From IMG/VR virus record IMGVR_UViG_2541047754_000003: a stretch of 40,869 bases of DNA; one strand, given 5' to 3'. Under the pieces are notes generated by a model. The model was given only the letters and a program-made list of their open reading frames with translations, did not search any database and had not been told where the DNA came from. Made by a program: the position numbers and the translations under genes. The stretch is from a virus. Lineage: Duplodnaviria > Heunggongvirae > Uroviricota > Caudoviricetes. The stretch's first letter is position 1. Every line of letters starts with the position of its first letter. Below are positions 2,697-26,618 of this stretch, one piece after another.

Positions 2697-3087
2697 CGTC
2701 TTTTCTCCCCGGAATTAAATCGCGTGGATTGTCTGAACGGTGGTAGAGCCATATACCAATACGCACAGCGACAATTGCTGACACGAATGCGCCAGCAGAG
2801 AAAACAATCCCTTTTTCAAAAGAGTCCTGCGTGATGGTAGGGATCAGGCTGGCTATGCCGATAAGAATTGATGCTGCTGGTTTGTAGAAAAGAAGTCCAC
2901 AGAGAAAGCTAAGCATCGATAAGAGTACGCGACGATGAATTGGGTACTCTACCGCAGAGGTAACAAAAATTACCGCACCAGCAAGAGCACCGAGCGCCAC
3001 CTCTGGCGGAACGCCTACGATAACTGCAGCAAGAGAGCTCACACTAAGCCATTGATTTAAAGAATCAGTAGTTAGATGGGCTGACAT
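2683..3087 (-). CDS. Putative holin (multi-TM membrane protein)
   Basis: About 134 aa from first ATG (ORF track starts at GTG 3096); several hydrophobic helices; first gene of lysis cassette after tailspike. Confidence 0.6.
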   Translation of the reverse strand: MSAHLTTDSLNQWLSVSSLAAVIVGVPPEVALGALAGAVIFVTSAVEYPIHRRVLLSMLSFLCGLLFYKPAASILIGIASLIPTITQDSFEKGIVFSAGAFVSAIVAVRIGIWLYHRSDNPRDLIPGRKDDGNA

Positions 3088-3316
3088 AATGAACACCGTT
3101 TATTACGCATAACAATCTCCTTACTATTGAAGATTCACACATAATAAACCATTTAAGGATAATAGTTACCTCAAAACGCTGTATTTCTACCTTCTACGGC
3201 AATGAAAATTTCGTTCAGAAAATGGTCTAGTGTACCTCTCAGTCACAATTAAAGAAGAAAGAAGCCGAACTTACTTCGTAATAAGCAAGCCGGCTACTAA
3301 GATTAATCCTCAATAT

Positions 3317-6073
3317 TTAGCTACTTTCAAGCATTGCAAGACGTGATTCTATTTTTTCGATTCTTCTACGCAAATAAGCTGACTCAAGCCATAAACACTG
3401 GTCAGTACGGATACCCCACCTATTTCCAGCCTTGCAAACCAGAGTTCGCTCTTCTGTTTCGTATTCTTCTTCCATCTCAATTTCGACGCCATCCACAACT
3501 TTAGTGATCATCCTTACCGCCATCACTGGCGCGTATTTATCATCCCATTCATCGTAACAGAGAAGGCCAAATCTGGTTCCATCAATCCCATGCGCGAGGA
3601 AAGTGTCTCTCACTTGTTGTGCTATAACACCAAAATGCCAGCGGGCACCATCTCCCTTTTCCCTGACGGCATCAAGCCAGCGAAAAGCTACAATCCTGAT
3701 ATCTCCCCATGCATCCAGAATTGCATCACCTTCATAACCACGAGACATATACAAGCTGAGCTCACTTGTACTAATCGGTTCACTTTTTTCTCTACCATCT
3801 GATGTGTTTATCGAACCGTTCGCAGAATAAACCTGTGCCCATCTAAATGATGGTGCACCAAGAGATTTGCTGTTATCAATAATTGGTGAAAAATTACCTT
3901 TAATGGCAATATTTCCAGAGTCGCCGAATATATTAATAACTGCAGAGTCATCACCATGGTTTTTTACGCTTAAGTTTCTTGATGAAATATTTATATCTTT
4001 GTTATATCCACTAACATTAATCCATCTTTTACCATCAATGTGATACCCGTAAATATTTCCGTCTGATTGTTCGTCAGGTGACTCTCTAAGAACAATAGCA
4101 TCTGCTCCAGACGACCATTGTATTTTTGTATCTGTAGGCCTCCAGTTCTTTATAATGAACGAACCATCAGTAAACTCCGTTTTTATTTGTCTATTGTCTA
4201 CAAATGCGTCTCTTGGTTTAAACTCACTTGTGTTAACGCTGCTCTGAAGATCAGAAGCAAAAAATCTAAGATTTCCTGTATAACCCTGAGTCTCGGTCTG
4301 GTTATACGCAATCATAATTCCATTTTCAAACTCAGATGATGTTATTTTAACATCACGGCAATCACCAAAAATGCAATTTCCTTTATCAAATGTTGTTTGA
4401 GCTTTGAATTTATCAAACCTTAAATTACGAACAGGGAAACCATCAACCTCTAATGCAAAGGATGCAGGAAGGCCAAAGTATTCTGATGGCTTACCTGATG
4501 TATGATCAAGAGTAGTGGCTACTGTATTCTCAAAAACAGTCCCGCTAAAATTATTACCAATTGACGGAAACCTGATTACACTTATTGTACCTTGTATTTC
4601 AGGAGAAATACCAGATAGTGTGATGTTAGCTCCATCAAATGATGCATCTGAATACGTATATACTGATTCACTGCCAGCAATTTTAAACTGTTTAACTGAA
4701 GTTATTCTCATCGACTTTTTATGTTTAAATGTCACTGAGCTTTCAGTATTACTTACAAGATCAATCTGAGGGCTATTCCTTATCGCGATCCCTGACTGGA
4801 CATAAACGTTATTAAAGTGCGTTTTTTCAGGATTTCCCTTCATTGAAAGGCTCCCGTCATTTTCTGTCAGTAGTAGTCCTTTTACCCTCCAATAGCCGAC
4901 AATCTGTACGTTATCAATAACTGAATCACAGCTATCGTATACATGCAACCCTATATCCCAGTTATCACCCAATGAATAAGAATCAGGGTTATTGTATCCT
5001 TCAATACCATTTTTACTTACCATTATTCTCAGATTGCGTAACTGTGATGCCCTGTTGATACTAACAGCTACGCTCATGGCTTTTGGTGTAGCAGGAGTAA
5101 CACCTACAGAATCTTCATTTGTAAACTCAGTGAACTTACAAGATATCCCTTCAACAATTTTAACTGGTCTTTCATTAGAGATGTTAAAAAAATATTTGTT
5201 TTTTTCTCCATCACCAGTAAATACAAGATGGGTTCCTTTACTCCAACTTTTTAATAATCTTTCAGGCGCTGGTCTATATGTATCCCAGTAATCAATTCCA
5301 TCACCAATTAATGAAACTCCAGGAGGCACATCTATATTCTTAGAAATCATCCATTTACCTGCAGGTATTCTAACGACACTTGCACCAGAATTTATCGCAT
5401 TAATTAACCATTCAGACGCATCAACTTCAAAATTTAATGCAGCATATCTTTGCTCAAACGGAACAAAATCAAGAGCGTTAACGTTATCCCGCATCTTATC
5501 CTGGAACGTTCGGTATACTGCTCCAGAACCATACTGAATAAACCAACCAAAACCACCAATAACTCCGGCGATTGCAGCATCGACATAATTACGCATTGAG
5601 CGATTATTTACAGCGTCCTGCTCAAGTGATGGATCAGCAAGGTTAGATATTCTGTTTTGCTTTGCATCGTAATATTTTGCAAGCAAAGATGGTTTCATCA
5701 ATGCACGTCTGAACCACCCAAAACATTGCTGGATCAGCATCGTCAGGTAGTCAAAAGCATCTTCATGCACTTCGGGGAAAAATTTACCCTGATTGCGAAG
5801 GTCTGTCTCCTGCACTACATCAAGCACACGATCTATCGTAATTCGCCATCCAGCAGCAAGCGGAGACGGAAGAACAACAGAACCGCCACTATAAGTGCCC
5901 GCCCCAGTTACCGTATAACCGGTATCCAGAACCAATTCTGTTACGTTCCCGTTCAGGTCAGACACCTGAACAACCAGGTCGGATTTTTTGAAAATACGGA
6001 AGGTATACGGAAATGATGTCGTAGCGCCGTTACCAGTGTATTCGTTGTGGTCAACTTCGGTTGAGACCGTCAT
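3317..6073 (-). CDS. Tailspike: conserved podovirus N-terminal anchor domain, central beta-helix-like enzymatic domain, C-terminal self-cleaving intramolecular chaperone (peptidase S74-like)
   Basis: 918 aa; N-terminus MTVSTEVDHNEYTGNG...; Gly/Asn/Ser-rich repeats typical of beta-helix depolymerases; C-terminal motif S-D-G-R-E-K (Ser/Lys dyad spacing). Confidence 0.85.
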   Translation of the reverse strand: MTVSTEVDHNEYTGNGATTSFPYTFRIFKKSDLVVQVSDLNGNVTELVLDTGYTVTGAGTYSGGSVVLPSPLAAGWRITIDRVLDVVQETDLRNQGKFFPEVHEDAFDYLTMLIQQCFGWFRRALMKPSLLAKYYDAKQNRISNLADPSLEQDAVNNRSMRNYVDAAIAGVIGGFGWFIQYGSGAVYRTFQDKMRDNVNALDFVPFEQRYAALNFEVDASEWLINAINSGASVVRIPAGKWMISKNIDVPPGVSLIGDGIDYWDTYRPAPERLLKSWSKGTHLVFTGDGEKNKYFFNISNERPVKIVEGISCKFTEFTNEDSVGVTPATPKAMSVAVSINRASQLRNLRIMVSKNGIEGYNNPDSYSLGDNWDIGLHVYDSCDSVIDNVQIVGYWRVKGLLLTENDGSLSMKGNPEKTHFNNVYVQSGIAIRNSPQIDLVSNTESSVTFKHKKSMRITSVKQFKIAGSESVYTYSDASFDGANITLSGISPEIQGTISVIRFPSIGNNFSGTVFENTVATTLDHTSGKPSEYFGLPASFALEVDGFPVRNLRFDKFKAQTTFDKGNCIFGDCRDVKITSSEFENGIMIAYNQTETQGYTGNLRFFASDLQSSVNTSEFKPRDAFVDNRQIKTEFTDGSFIIKNWRPTDTKIQWSSGADAIVLRESPDEQSDGNIYGYHIDGKRWINVSGYNKDINISSRNLSVKNHGDDSAVINIFGDSGNIAIKGNFSPIIDNSKSLGAPSFRWAQVYSANGSINTSDGREKSEPISTSELSLYMSRGYEGDAILDAWGDIRIVAFRWLDAVREKGDGARWHFGVIAQQVRDTFLAHGIDGTRFGLLCYDEWDDKYAPVMAVRMITKVVDGVEIEMEEEYETEERTLVCKAGNRWGIRTDQCLWLESAYLRRRIEKIESRLAMLESS

Positions 6074-6177: not shown

Positions 6178-6192
6178 TTACCTTTCAGGTGA
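6178..6192. promoter_or_regulatory. Operator-like palindrome TTACC-N5-GGTGA (one mismatch to TTACC-N5-GGTAA)
   Basis: Sequence TTACCTTTCAGGTGA upstream of the LexA-box gene. Confidence 0.45.
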
Positions 6193-7297: not shown

Positions 7298-7312
7298 TTA
7301 CCTTAAAGGTAA
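7298..7312. promoter_or_regulatory. Operator palindrome TTACC-N5-GGTAA
   Basis: TTACCTTAAAGGTAA, perfect arms, between divergent genes 6549-7277 and ant. Confidence 0.6.
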
Positions 7313-7361: not shown

Positions 7362-7405
7362 TTGATTTTAATATTTCTTCGCGTTTATCATTACCTTTGC
7401 GGTAA
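7362..7405 (+). promoter_or_regulatory. Putative ant promoter (-35 TTGATT, -10 TATCAT) overlapped by operator TTACCTTTGCGGTAA (7391-7405)
   Basis: Sigma70-like hexamers with 18-bp spacer; perfect operator palindrome overlapping -10/+1. Confidence 0.5.
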
Positions 7406-7496
7406 ATTTACATCGCACTCCTCTTGTGCCATAGTAATCGGGCACTGGATTTTGCCAGTGCCGGGATTGGCGTCCCGGGTTACTACAGAGGCACAT

Positions 7497-7518
7497 ATGC
7501 CGCATAAGCGGTTTTTTT
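7497..7518 (+). terminator. Weak intrinsic terminator or attenuator in the ant leader
   Basis: Short GC stem (GCCGC/GCGGT) with loop ATAA followed by seven T; preceded by two stable hairpins at 7442-7478. Confidence 0.35.
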
Positions 7519-7671
7519 ATGTGTAAAGCGCACCTATTCTATGGTGGGCTGTGTGGGGGCACCGAAAGGTGCGCCGGGTCCTTTGTAGCCGGTTACGCCA
7601 ACCCTGCACAGTTCACCACCAACCGATTGGCGTCGGTAGTGGTGATTAACCTAACTACAAAGGTGATCACT

Positions 7672-8358
7672 ATGACTGCTAACGTAACCCCATCTGTTTT
7701 TCATTTTGAATCAGAGGCAACCATTCGAGCCATTGTTATTGATGGAAATCCTTGGTTTGTTGCCAAAGACGTTATTAAAGCTCTTCAACTGACAAACCCC
7801 ACTATGTCAATAAAATCTCTTGATGATGATGAAAGGGCTAAATTTAACTTAGGCCGTCAAGGCGAAACCAATATTATCAACGAGTCAGGCCTCTACACAC
7901 TGATCCTCCGCTGCCGCGATGCGGTGACACCAGGCACTATCCCCTACCGCTTTCGTAAATGGGTTACAGGTGAGGTTCTTCCTCAGATCCGCCGCACCGG
8001 AAGTTACATTAAAAACTCGCTCCCGCAGGAAGAACGCATAAAGATGGTTGCCGACCAGGTAGCCAACGCCACGGCGTCAGCAGTAATGCAGGCGATGAAG
8101 ATAGAGAACAAAACCTACAGTGCCCCGCTGAAGCCCGGCTACCGCAGCCTGATTCACTCGCCGTCTGGTGTTCTCGGCCTGACGGAGAACTCACTGCTGA
8201 TGAATCTGCTGAACCAGTTACAGGAAGACGGGCACGACGTATCGGGCGCGGCGGCAGAGCTGACCACCATGTTCTGCTACATCGTCGGTGTGAGCAAATG
8301 CCTGCGTGATATCCAGACGCACGCGGAGTACATCAACGACAAAGCAGGATTCTTCTGA
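7672..8358 (+). CDS. ant: Antirepressor (BRO-N-like N-terminal domain plus Ant C-terminal domain)
   Basis: ATG 7672 with AAGGTGA RBS; N-terminal FHFESEATIRAIVIDGNPWFVAKDVIKAL resembles BRO-N antirepressor domain; upstream part of ORF-track ORF is structured leader. Confidence 0.8.
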   Translation: MTANVTPSVFHFESEATIRAIVIDGNPWFVAKDVIKALQLTNPTMSIKSLDDDERAKFNLGRQGETNIINESGLYTLILRCRDAVTPGTIPYRFRKWVTGEVLPQIRRTGSYIKNSLPQEERIKMVADQVANATASAVMQAMKIENKTYSAPLKPGYRSLIHSPSGVLGLTENSLLMNLLNQLQEDGHDVSGAAAELTTMFCYIVGVSKCLRDIQTHAEYINDKAGFF

Positions 8359-25515: not shown

Positions 25516-25552
25516 TTGACATTTAACGCGCGAATTATTACCTTTCAGGTAA
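25516..25552 (+). promoter_or_regulatory. Putative promoter (-35 TTGACA at 25516-25521) with operator TTACCTTTCAGGTAA (25538-25552)
   Basis: Consensus -35 hexamer; perfect operator palindrome immediately downstream; oriented toward tRNA and cargo gene. Confidence 0.45.
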
Positions 25553-25874
25553 CTAAAGAGTTCATTCCGGTTACTAACCTGACTGGCTTGTCGTTAAATT
25601 GAACAGGTGGAGTGAGCTTTTATTTTGAGCAGTACGGCGTATGGCACATGCGACGATAGCGGTCTGGATACGTTTAAGGGGCACCCTCCCTTGCTCGGGC
25701 AAACGAACCAGGTAGCCGGAATGTGCAAGTCGAGCGGTTTTATTCCGCGCACGGGGATTCACCATCCCGGCGATTCGGTGTGACGCCTCGGAAGAGACGA
25801 GGGTACAACGATGAGAGCATTTATGGAGCCGCGACAAAGTGTGGTGCCTTAACAGGCTAAGTGCTCTCAGCGTT

Positions 25875-25951
25875 GTGGCATTAGCTCAGTTGGACAGAGC
25901 AACCGCCTTCTAAGCGGTTGGTCGCAGGTTCGAATCCTGCATGCCACGCCA
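25875..25951 (+). tRNA. tRNA-Arg (anticodon TCT), phage-encoded
   Basis: 77 nt; 7-bp acceptor stem GTGGCAT/ATGCCAC, D-arm TAGCTCAGTTGGACAGAGCA, anticodon loop CTTCTAA, T-arm GGTTCGAATCC, 3-prime GCCA; acceptor stem differs from E. coli argU as I recall it. Confidence 0.9.
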
Positions 25952-25994
25952 GAATCACGCCTAAGGACCGTGATGCCAGAAGTTCCAAGGGCTT

Positions 25995-26037
25995 GGCGGT
26001 GATGGTTTCCCTTGAAGGACTATCACCGCCCTTTTTA
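25995..26037 (+). terminator. Putative terminator after tRNA
   Basis: 9-bp stem GGCGGTGAT/ATCACCGCC with large loop, followed by CTTTTTA. Confidence 0.45.
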
Positions 26038-26114
26038 CAGCAGGACGCCATTGCGATGACTTCATGCTGTAAACCAGTACAGCCACGGAAGGCATAACTC
26101 ATTGCTTCCAGTTC

Positions 26115-26138
26115 GCCCGGTTCGCCGGGCATTTTTTT
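26115..26138 (+). terminator. Rho-independent terminator abutting the RBS of the downstream gene
   Basis: Stem GCCCGG/CCGGGC, loop TTCG, followed by seven T; RBS AAGGTGAG and ATG 26150 follow directly. Confidence 0.6.
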
Positions 26139-26149
26139 AAGGTGAGATT

Positions 26150-26572
26150 ATGAAGACAATTGATATGTTGGCTAAGTATCTAAATGAATGGCCATTAAAA
26201 TATTCTCGTATCGTTCAGGCTGAAGACTGCGTTTTTTATGGCGTTTTTGCTGGTAATGAAATGCATTACGAAGTAATTCAGAGTGAGGGACTGACCGGGT
26301 TAACTCTTAGCGAAGACCATGGTACTAGCGTTACGTTCCATGACTGGATAACAGCACAACGTTCTGAAATGGAAAAAGGCGATGTGTTTGATATTTCTCG
26401 CTCTGTATACGCCAAAGAAAAAAGTGATGATGATTACATGCGCGAAAACTTATACAACATGAAGTTACAATGCCTGGCTGAAGTGCTTAGTAAAAGATCT
26501 TTACTTGATGTGGTTGGTGCTGAGCAGGACGCCAAGGCAATCAACGCCGCATTCGATAAAATAACCTTCTAA
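26150..26572 (+). CDS. Hypothetical cytoplasmic protein (140 aa); cargo gene downstream of tRNA
   Basis: ATG with AAGGTGAG RBS; antisense to flanking terminase and portal genes; terminator downstream. Confidence 0.65.
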   Translation: MKTIDMLAKYLNEWPLKYSRIVQAEDCVFYGVFAGNEMHYEVIQSEGLTGLTLSEDHGTSVTFHDWITAQRSEMEKGDVFDISRSVYAKEKSDDDYMRENLYNMKLQCLAEVLSKRSLLDVVGAEQDAKAINAAFDKITF

Positions 26573-26575
26573 CGC

Positions 26576-26587
26576 AGTGACATGTCA
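26576..26587. repeat. 12-bp palindrome GTGACATGTCAC (copy 2 of 3)
   Basis: Exact copy 4 nt after the stop of the cargo gene. Confidence 0.6.
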
Positions 26588-26591
26588 CAAA

Positions 26592-26618
26592 CAGCCAGCC
26601 GATGAGCTGGCTTTGTTT
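26592..26618 (+). terminator. Rho-independent terminator
   Basis: 7-bp stem AGCCAGC/GCTGGCT followed by TTGTTTT. Confidence 0.55.

Follow-up and report, generated by a model that had tools for sequence, protein, structure and literature searches.

The 40,869-nucleotide DNA of a Caudoviricetes virus (IMG/VR record IMGVR_UViG_2541047754_000003; hereafter the window, meaning the whole stretch analysed) carries at positions 25516-26618 a short transcription unit on the + strand, whose untranslated leader is the main subject of this study. The flanking genes all lie on the - strand and encode the portal (Head-tail_con, E = 2e-187), the small terminase (TerS; Terminase_2) and the large terminase (TerL). 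Read from its promoter end, the unit comprises an operator-controlled promoter, an untranslated RNA, a tRNA, two tandem terminators and a cargo gene, all antisense within the packaging/head block, and in this layout we agree with a preliminary description of the sequence.

Judged by its sequence, the window is a phiV10/epsilon15-like Uetakevirus: phiV10, HEMP4, PAS61 and other members of the genus match the region at 94-98% identity. The unit is no insertion private to this genome: it recurs, likewise antisense, across the genus, between the gp3 homologue and TerL in phiV10, PAS61, SPN1S, Tyrion and PAT1, as well as in Klebsiella Uetakeviruses (including Klebsiella phage ST512-KPC3phi13.3), with epsilon15 carrying a cut-down form. 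The features named in the preliminary description are real, yet ordinary for the phage genus. Positions 25516-26618 are best explained as an accessory unit that is transcribed early, is controlled by the phage repressor and is standard in phiV10/epsilon15-like phages; the earlier concern that the unit would collide with late transcription stands. An 83-residue open reading frame (ORF) on the - strand at 25881-26132, equivalent to PhiV10p04 of phiV10, lies antisense to the tRNA and the first terminator and is unlikely to be a gene. What makes the finding valuable is the structured RNA, the part that had been passed over.

A conserved, pseudoknotted RNA in the leader

The stretch of about 320 nucleotides between promoter and tRNA had been taken for a mere non-coding leader, a view that does not hold. 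When 25553-25874 alone was used as the query, unannotated DNA about 80% identical to it was found in unrelated phages. Lambdoid carriers are cdtI, mEp460, 2H10, Ayreon, Stx2c-converting and some Stx2a-converting phages, and a phage recorded as infecting Stenotrophomonas; the P1-type carriers are P1, P7, D6 and SJ46, and Klebsiella phage SopranoGao has a copy as well. Exact matches to a 19-mer within the leader, GGTAGCCGGAATGTGCAAG, occur at 24 loci among 185,579 species genomes, all of them from Enterobacteriaceae except two contigs of metagenome-assembled genomes, and in at least 120 IMG/VR contigs. The match in an Oscillospiraceae metagenome-assembled genome (L024) was rejected as chance, as the rest of the element is absent there. 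Pooling the loci from the species genomes and IMG/VR gave 71 non-redundant family members. By megablast, the element is present in 1071 of 5426 complete E. coli genomes (about 20%), where RefSeq annotates nothing across it, and it is also found in P1-like plasmid-prophages, in Stx2c-converting phages, and in phages of Salmonella, Klebsiella and Enterobacter.

The fold of this RNA is real and strand-specific, with five covarying helices of which one is a pseudoknot. We specified the five (P1, P2, P4, the pseudoknot and P5) on an alignment of the 71 non-redundant sequences, to which the following counts refer. In total, 95.0% of helix cells were paired, compared with 28-52% in controls with slid partners, and compensatory double changes were seen at 13 pairs (163 cells). 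None of 500 shuffles reached the observed value on four of five pairing measures; on the remaining one, the count of further pair types, 12 of 500 did so. The occurrence of several G-U pairs identifies the + strand as the RNA. An earlier alignment of 11 sequences also displayed invariant blocks split by variable hairpins in which compensatory changes occur. Folded as a single sequence, the leader could not be told apart from shuffles (z = -1.3 and -1.1), so the evidence for structure is wholly comparative.

The element occupies 25633-25875, with a core (P1-P5) at 25635-25802 followed by a hairpin, P6, that runs to 25875. P1 is a hairpin of 9 pairs at 25635-25655 (CGGCGUAUG-GCA-CAUGCGACG) with 97% of cells paired; one of its pairs is changed from G-C to A-U in 32 of the 71 sequences, and its G-U pairs fix the + strand. 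The P2 helix (25663-25667 with 25708-25712) encloses a variable hairpin with a YCCYUU motif in its apex, and its pairs switch from C-G to U-A in 20 sequences, from G-C to A-U in three and from G-C to C-G in three. The 19-mer, at 25711-25729, is identical in all 71 representatives. Next comes the P4 hairpin, within 25754-25780 (25754-25757 with 25765-25768), which is 98.6% paired and has double changes in three of four pairs. Its loop sequence CACC (25760-25763) forms the pseudoknot with GGUG (25777-25780), which is 99.3% paired and has one pair that is C-G in 62 sequences and A-U in nine, CAAC with GUUG being the natural variant. P5, at 25786-25802, is the hairpin CCUCG-GAAGAGA-CGAGG (25786-25790 with 25798-25802), with compensatory double changes in four of five pairs and a conserved loop. 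The long P6 hairpin (25806-25875; CAACG-AU-GAGAGCA ... UGCUCUC-AG-CGUUG) varies in the length of its apex and exists in two classes that covary, GAGAGCA/UGCUCUC and AAGAGCA/UGCUCUU, and G1 of the tRNA takes part in its last pair. Upstream of the element, at 25556-25621 on the + strand, the minimum-free-energy fold contains a long 5' hairpin, H0, whose homologue in the epsilon15 record is labelled an RNase III processing site.

Two further observations concern the loops and modules of this RNA. The C/U-rich motif YCCYUU(G), which resembles an anti-Shine-Dalgarno sequence, is present both in the P2 apex (25680-25690 in the window) and in the loop of the first terminator, T1 (26007-26016); YCCYUU is found in the P2 apex of 53 of 71 copies (7.5% in shuffles) and in the T1 loop of 17 of 25 copies (11.5% in shuffles). 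At two loci (L012 and L128), several tandem copies of a small unit stand within about 200 nucleotides on both sides of the element. Each unit is made up of a hairpin with a UGACCAG-like loop, GAC, and a CCGGGAAAGACCGG hairpin, and each copy resembles P4-P5 of the core.

The element recurs in three contexts. In Uetakeviruses it lies between gp3 and TerL; in lambdoid phages a short distance downstream of the repressor gene and on the repressor's strand, which is the position of pL/nutL/N in lambda; and in P1-like phages in the C1-controlled ban operon, where trnI precedes it and ban follows, or, in related plasmid-phages, before a Tad2-like gene. It is co-oriented with the downstream genes in all three of these unrelated backbones. 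All three contexts are downstream of repressor-controlled promoters, as indicated by the operator in the window, by the annotated C1 control of the P1 ban operon and by the position just after cI in the lambdoids, and the Uetakevirus and lambdoid copies usually precede intrinsic terminators.

The lambdoid arrangement is well illustrated by cdtI (L004), in which the cI stop at 2882 is followed by a terminator (2894-2911), a promoter (TTGACA-16-CATAAT, 2921-2948), the element (3001-3246, starting 46 nucleotides past the predicted transcription start), a second terminator (GGCGGUACCAG...CUGGUACCGC-UCUUUUU, 3373-3412) and the first ORF at 3549. No other promoter was found on the element's strand in cdtI. 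The first gene past the promoter in cdtI and mEp460 is hypothetical and has no Pfam match, the whole genomes not having been searched for N. Related lambdoid phages are reported to have no N homologue, and a put-like RNA mechanism has been suggested for them (PMC12315714).

Searches with Rfam 15 of the window and phage cdtI, permissive to an E of 10, returned the tRNA alone as passing; other hits for 25553-25874 and the cdtI region had E >= 0.007, far under the gathering scores, and were located elsewhere or on the opposite strand. No second copy that would parallel putR was found in the window (the next best match scored 8.5 bits, E = 0.43), and the listed family loci each have a single 19-mer match. 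Our literature searches (the 19-mer in full text, P1 ban-operon transcriptomes, phiV10/epsilon15, and newer antiterminator RNAs) turned up no description of the element, and the vB_EcoP_ZX5 paper does not cover the region. The element is thus a structured RNA, well supported, widespread and so far undescribed, with which repressor-controlled early transcripts begin in three lineages of temperate phages; within the unit it is the part that is constant and most conserved.

In epsilon15 the element survives as a natural deletion derivative. At this locus (L005, 3050-3115), P1 and the 5' half of P2 run directly into the 3' arm of T1, and the junction is a 13-nucleotide repeat, TTCCCTTGATGCT, that relatives have in both the P2 apex and the T1 loop. 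A covariance model of the 5' domain (R1) scores 39 bits here compared with 85 bits in phiV10. Since epsilon15 is viable without most of the element, the element is dispensable for growth.

Control and composition of the unit

The putative sigma-70 promoter of the window, read from the sequence at 25516-25544 on the + strand, consists of TTGACA (25516-25521), 17 nucleotides and TACCTT, with an AT-rich stretch upstream; relatives L011, L097 and L114 share the arrangement. Of the promoter with operator claimed earlier, the operator is borne out, while the promoter is less well supported: its -35 element is perfect, but the -10 element matches the consensus at three of six positions and a consensus scan did not report it. 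The operator palindrome, TTACCTTTCAGGTAA, lies at 25538-25552, overlapping the -10 region. Allowing up to two mismatches, TTACCTNNNAGGTAA has 18 matches in the window, with 1.0 expected and none of 100 shuffles reaching 18. Matches with no or one mismatch (at 6178; 7298 and 7391; 8432; 32491 and 32553; 34499 and 34884; 35596 and 35658) fall in the gaps between long ORFs when compared with the window's ORF list, and the GenBank record of epsilon15 independently annotates a repressor site in the corresponding intergenic region. On this sequence pattern, TTACCTTTCAGGTAA is clearly a dispersed, operator-like site. Its position over the promoter implies that the unit should be silent in a lysogen and fire early after derepression. 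The consensus scan found no sigma-70 promoter on the + strand between 25553 and 26150.

The scattering of TTACCTNNNAGGTAA resembles the dispersed C1 operators of P1 more than a single immunity region of lambda type. Elsewhere in the window, at 7442-7623 (+), Rfam identifies isrK (56.7 bits) and the C4 antisense RNA (79.5 bits) in tandem, just upstream of a 279-residue ORF (7519-8358) and preceded by two operators (7298-7312 and 7391-7405). This region looks like a P1-type immI (c4-icd-ant) antirepressor module. The pair of C4 and isrK also occurs in lambdoid loci that bear the RNA element (L004, L010 and L047).

Downstream of the tRNA, the two consecutive intrinsic terminators of the preliminary description are recovered as hairpins with U-tracts at 25995-26030 and 26115-26130, their activity being predicted, and a third hairpin is present at 26593-26612. 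In an RNAfold-based terminator scan, T1 (25995-26037, +; GGCGGUGAUGG...CUAUCACCGCC, then CUUUUUAC) has a predicted energy of -22.0 kcal/mol and T2 (26115-26138, +; GCCCGG-UUCG-CCGGGC, then AUUUUUUU) one of -11.2 kcal/mol. T3 (26593-26618; AGCCAGC...GCTGGCT) lies between the convergent cargo ORF and TerL and, as read from the sequence, is followed by a U-rich tail on the + strand and, on the opposite strand, by the weaker tail GUUUGU. The GGCGGU...ACCGCC-CUUUUUAC terminator, which is T1 in the window, follows the element with compensatory stem changes in Uetakevirus and lambdoid copies alike. T2 is kept in position across the genus whatever the cargo, with GCCCAC/GUGGGC as an alternative stem. 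By our reading of the scan output, a strong intrinsic terminator lies between the element and the first ORF in about 40 of the 71 representatives. More conserved hairpin modules are found between T1 and the first ORF, and transcripts therefore probably continue beyond T1.

The tRNA gene at 25875-25951 (+) was confirmed as tRNA-Arg(UCU), with CCA encoded, both by ARAGORN (tRNA-Arg(tct)) and by Rfam (RF00005, 73.3 bits; gathering score 29). A tRNA adjoins the element in 14 of 71 family members, and the other 57 have none nearby. In seven Uetakevirus representatives among the 14, it is a tRNA-Arg(UCU) directly downstream; in six P1-like representatives it is a tRNA with a CAU anticodon directly upstream; and there is one other case. 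The tRNA is thus an optional passenger. Just beyond it in the window, at 25954-25974 (+), a small hairpin read from the sequence (AUCACG...CGUGAU) is kept in L011, L097 and L114. Copies without a tRNA fill its slot with a helix, GUGGU...ACCACAAC, around variable sequence. This helix encloses about 90-150 nucleotides (L004, 3236-3330; L031, L097 and L114; L127, 1077-1203), some copies keep strings resembling a D arm (GTTAGCTCAGG) or a T arm (GGTTCAATTCC), and in L127 a 127-nucleotide Rfam tRNA hit covers the slot (1077-1203). These helices may be decayed or remodelled tRNAs.

The tRNA fits the codon usage of the phage. AGA makes up 8.1 per 1000 codons in the window, compared with roughly 2 per 1000 in E. 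coli, and the tRNA would supply AGA decoding for an AGA-rich phage. A single 918-residue ORF (3317-6073, -) has 21 AGA and 10 AGG codons, about a quarter of the window's counted AGA codons; this load suggests a recent acquisition and a particular need for the phage tRNA-Arg(UCU).

The cargo gene was also as first described: a 140-codon ORF (26150-26572, +; ATG start) whose ribosome-binding site directly abuts the U-tract of T2 (AAGGTGAG-N5-ATG; the whole at 26139-26572). The product belongs to phrog_4846, function unknown. It has no hit in Pfam (the Tad2-like PF11195 included), NCBIfam, PADLOC or a PDB sequence search, and its 103 homologues, nearly all from Enterobacteriaceae, are every one named hypothetical. 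An AlphaFold2 model of the product was obtained but is poor (predicted local distance difference test 63, predicted template modelling score 0.41), and a Foldseek search of the PDB with it returned nothing at E <= 0.001.

Across relatives, the position between T2 and T3 holds at least eight unrelated genes, or none. Its contents include the 140-residue family, Phage_gp49_66 (phiV10 and epsilon15), the Tad2-like PF11195, DUF551, an HNH endonuclease and several matchless ORFs; L097 and L133 have no cargo ORF. The cargo position is thus a swappable slot. PF11195 is encoded by the slot gene of a Klebsiella Uetakevirus (E = 4e-26) and, in a P1-like phage, by the first ORF past the element (E = 1e-9). 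Because relatives carry such Tad2-like anti-defence genes in the slot, a counter-defence role for the 140-residue protein is plausible. In one Uetakevirus relative (L039), an HNH homing endonuclease (PF13392) lies in the slot, 610-1102 nucleotides downstream of the 19-mer, and homing endonucleases could be one route by which the contents of the slot are exchanged.

Possible functions of the RNA

What might an RNA in this position do? We tentatively infer that it is a cis-acting antiterminator working like HK022 put. We rank this explanation first because the order of early promoter, nascent RNA, tandem terminators and genes, with no other promoter, matches that of HK022 pL-putL and lambda pL-nutL. 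The nascent RNA would act in cis on its own RNA polymerase, either directly or via host Nus factors. Polymerases from the promoter at 25516 would thereby pass T1 and T2, so that the swappable cargo would be expressed early in lytic growth, those started elsewhere would stop at T1/T2, and RNase P and 3' processing would excise tRNA-Arg(UCU) from the transcript.

Several observations weigh against antitermination in cis. First, membership of the put family was tested with models, and each test was negative: an nhmmer search with a profile of the 5' domain does not detect put in either HK022 or HK639; the R1 covariance model of that domain has no hit, at E up to 10, to HK022 putL/putR or the HK639 putL-like RNA; and the converse model (R2), built on 44 put RNAs with the pairing taken from the put cryo-EM structure (PMC9378689), has no hit in the window or in six family loci. 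The likeness of the element to put is thus the by-eye resemblance that remains after these tests. Second, terminator-proof polymerases in Uetakeviruses would cross T3 into the antisense TerL and TerS genes, which looks harmful. Third, at least two Uetakeviruses without a cargo ORF (L097 and L133) keep the RNA, T1 and T2; P1 copies have no P6 and no predicted terminator before ban; and about a third of the lambdoid and Uetakevirus copies are without a strong predicted terminator downstream. Finally, epsilon15 is viable though most of its element is lost.

Some of the same facts would fit a stand-alone early non-coding RNA that acts in trans, an explanation we consider somewhat less likely but a serious rival. 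Such an RNA would extend from the transcription start to T1 (about 480 nucleotides before processing) and be made on derepression, with the cargo expressed by leak-through only; it would bind or sequester some component of host or phage, for example RNA polymerase, an RNA-binding protein, ribosome-binding sites (via the C/U-rich loops) or a defence system. The sequence of T1 is conserved together with the element across backbones, L097 and L133 hold the RNA and both terminators with no cargo to express, the long invariant single-stranded stretches suggest a conserved binding partner, YCCYUU is shared by the P2-apex and T1 loops, and the viability of epsilon15 marks the element as accessory. 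However, the element is always co-oriented with downstream genes and at the head of an operon, conserved structured modules persist past T1, and P1 copies have no terminator of their own. Moreover, T1 of the lambdoid phages separates the whole early-left operon from the one promoter that can be detected, so that read-through must happen there.

A third explanation, which we judge quite unlikely, is that the element is a scaffold for processing or stability with no effect on termination. H0, P6 and the tRNA-adjacent fold would guide RNase III, RNase P or RNase E to their cleavage sites; this cleavage would yield the mature tRNA, or the tRNA-like sequence that replaces it, and determine how long the mRNA downstream persists. 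Consistent with this, the epsilon15 record labels the stretch homologous to H0 an RNase III site, P6 ends on G1 of the tRNA, the P1 element directly follows trnI, and the tRNA slot of tRNA-less copies holds the GUGGU...ACCACAAC helix, at one locus with the 127-nucleotide tRNA hit. Yet 57 of 71 members are without a nearby tRNA, the pseudoknotted core and the 19-nucleotide invariant stretch are more elaborate than known processing sites need, and the tandem terminators are left unexplained.

The preliminary description had in effect seen an inert untranslated leader in a Stx-like moron of tRNA and cargo, with no functional RNA. The order of promoter, tRNA, terminator and cargo is as it described; nevertheless, the roughly 80% nucleotide conservation in unrelated phages, the five covarying helices with their pseudoknot and the absence of a tRNA from most members make this very improbable, and operator control argues against expression in the lysogen or late. 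Finally, although ORFs of 45-87 codons overlap the region and the mEp460, Ayreon and phiV10 records annotate hypothetical ORFs across or beside it, we reject the idea that the conserved stretch encodes a small protein on either strand, since conservation tracks base pairing and not codons, substitutions are compensatory, indels in P2, P3 and P6 have lengths not divisible by three, and phiV10p04 is antisense to the tRNA.

Whatever its function, the element represents a family of structured RNA with good support that neither Rfam nor RefSeq annotation includes, and it marks a hot spot of early accessory gene exchange, some of it anti-defence, which could help to find counter-defence genes. If it is a cis antiterminator, it would join put as only the second sequence class of antiterminator RNA in phages that is factor-independent, much larger than put and far more widespread, and it would make testable how lambdoid phages of the ST64B/SfV/cdtI type without an N homologue pass their early terminators. 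With the same tentativeness, we propose that it may represent a new class of large, pseudoknotted phage RNAs that reprogram the host transcription machinery (RNA polymerase or Nus factors), or else have a wholly new early-lytic function, for example as a counter-defence RNA. If true, this would explain early transcription through terminators in lambdoids that have no N at the usual position, in the P1 ban operon and in the Uetakevirus units.

Comparison with known systems

In the published Uetakevirus genomes (phiV10, epsilon15, SPN1S and the O157 typing phages 9 and 10), the unit has the same position and orientation as in the window. Some of these records annotate the tRNA-Arg, a terminator and the cargo ORF, and that of epsilon15 also marks sites for a repressor, IHF and RNase III at the locus. 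The structured RNA is annotated in none of them, the feature column reading 'none' across the leader.

An analogy with the toxin loci of Stx phages, drawn in the preliminary description, proved weak. The stx genes are a late, Q-dependent moron, whereas the unit in the window has a dispersed repressor operator overlapping its promoter and is predicted to be early and off in the lysogen. Cassettes of Stx phages likewise have tRNA genes for rare codons, tRNA-Arg among them, upstream of an accessory gene with terminators on either side. Compared with these cassettes, the unit is operator-controlled, probably early, and antisense to the late genes, and its conserved part is a structured RNA, not the tRNA.

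The position of the element in the transcript is like that of the lambda nut sites, with the boxB-boxA-boxC signals of rrn operons as the other comparison. P5 is a GC-rich hairpin of 5 base pairs with a GAAGA-containing loop (GAAGAGA), which we take to be like boxB of lambda nutL. The 3' strand of P6 (UGCUCUUUCC or UGCUCUCAGC, then GUUGUGG) presumably resembles boxA (UGCUCUUU) followed by a G/U-rich boxC. BoxA, with the consensus UGCUCUUUA, is single-stranded when bound by NusB/NusE, and at nut sites N is encoded just downstream. Unlike boxA, the boxA-like strand of the element is paired within a helix that covaries, and this pairing speaks against a simple Nus-factor site.

The closest comparison is with put, which needs no phage protein to let polymerase pass terminators in cis; mutations that alter the zinc-binding domain of the RNA polymerase beta-prime subunit, such as Y75N, block it. 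The putL and putR RNAs of HK022 and the putL-like RNA of HK639 likewise follow closely on a repressor-controlled early promoter and precede terminators. The element has this position both in cdtI (promoter, element, terminator, ORF) and in the window (operator-overlapped promoter, element, T1, T2, ORF). In HK022 and HK639, as in the element-bearing lambdoids, the N gene is not at its usual place (PMC9378689). A put-specific 15-mer, TAAACCATGCGTCGG, is found in at least 120 IMG/VR viral contigs (L162-L281), from which 47 distinct put-like cores were extracted and 44 aligned; put stem II covaries clearly in these cores, and put has no Rfam family as far as our Rfam searches showed. By eye, the base of put stem I is identical to that of P1 (CGGCG/CGUCG, including the G-U pair), and both RNAs have a variable hairpin flanked by GCGG and CGG(C/A)AAU. 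Nevertheless, the two differ in scale and in range. The element is about three times larger than put (about 70 nucleotides, two stems), with a core of about 170 nucleotides plus P6, a pseudoknot and three more helices; it is present in one copy per phage, whereas put is present in two; and, unlike put, it is also found outside the lambdoid phages.

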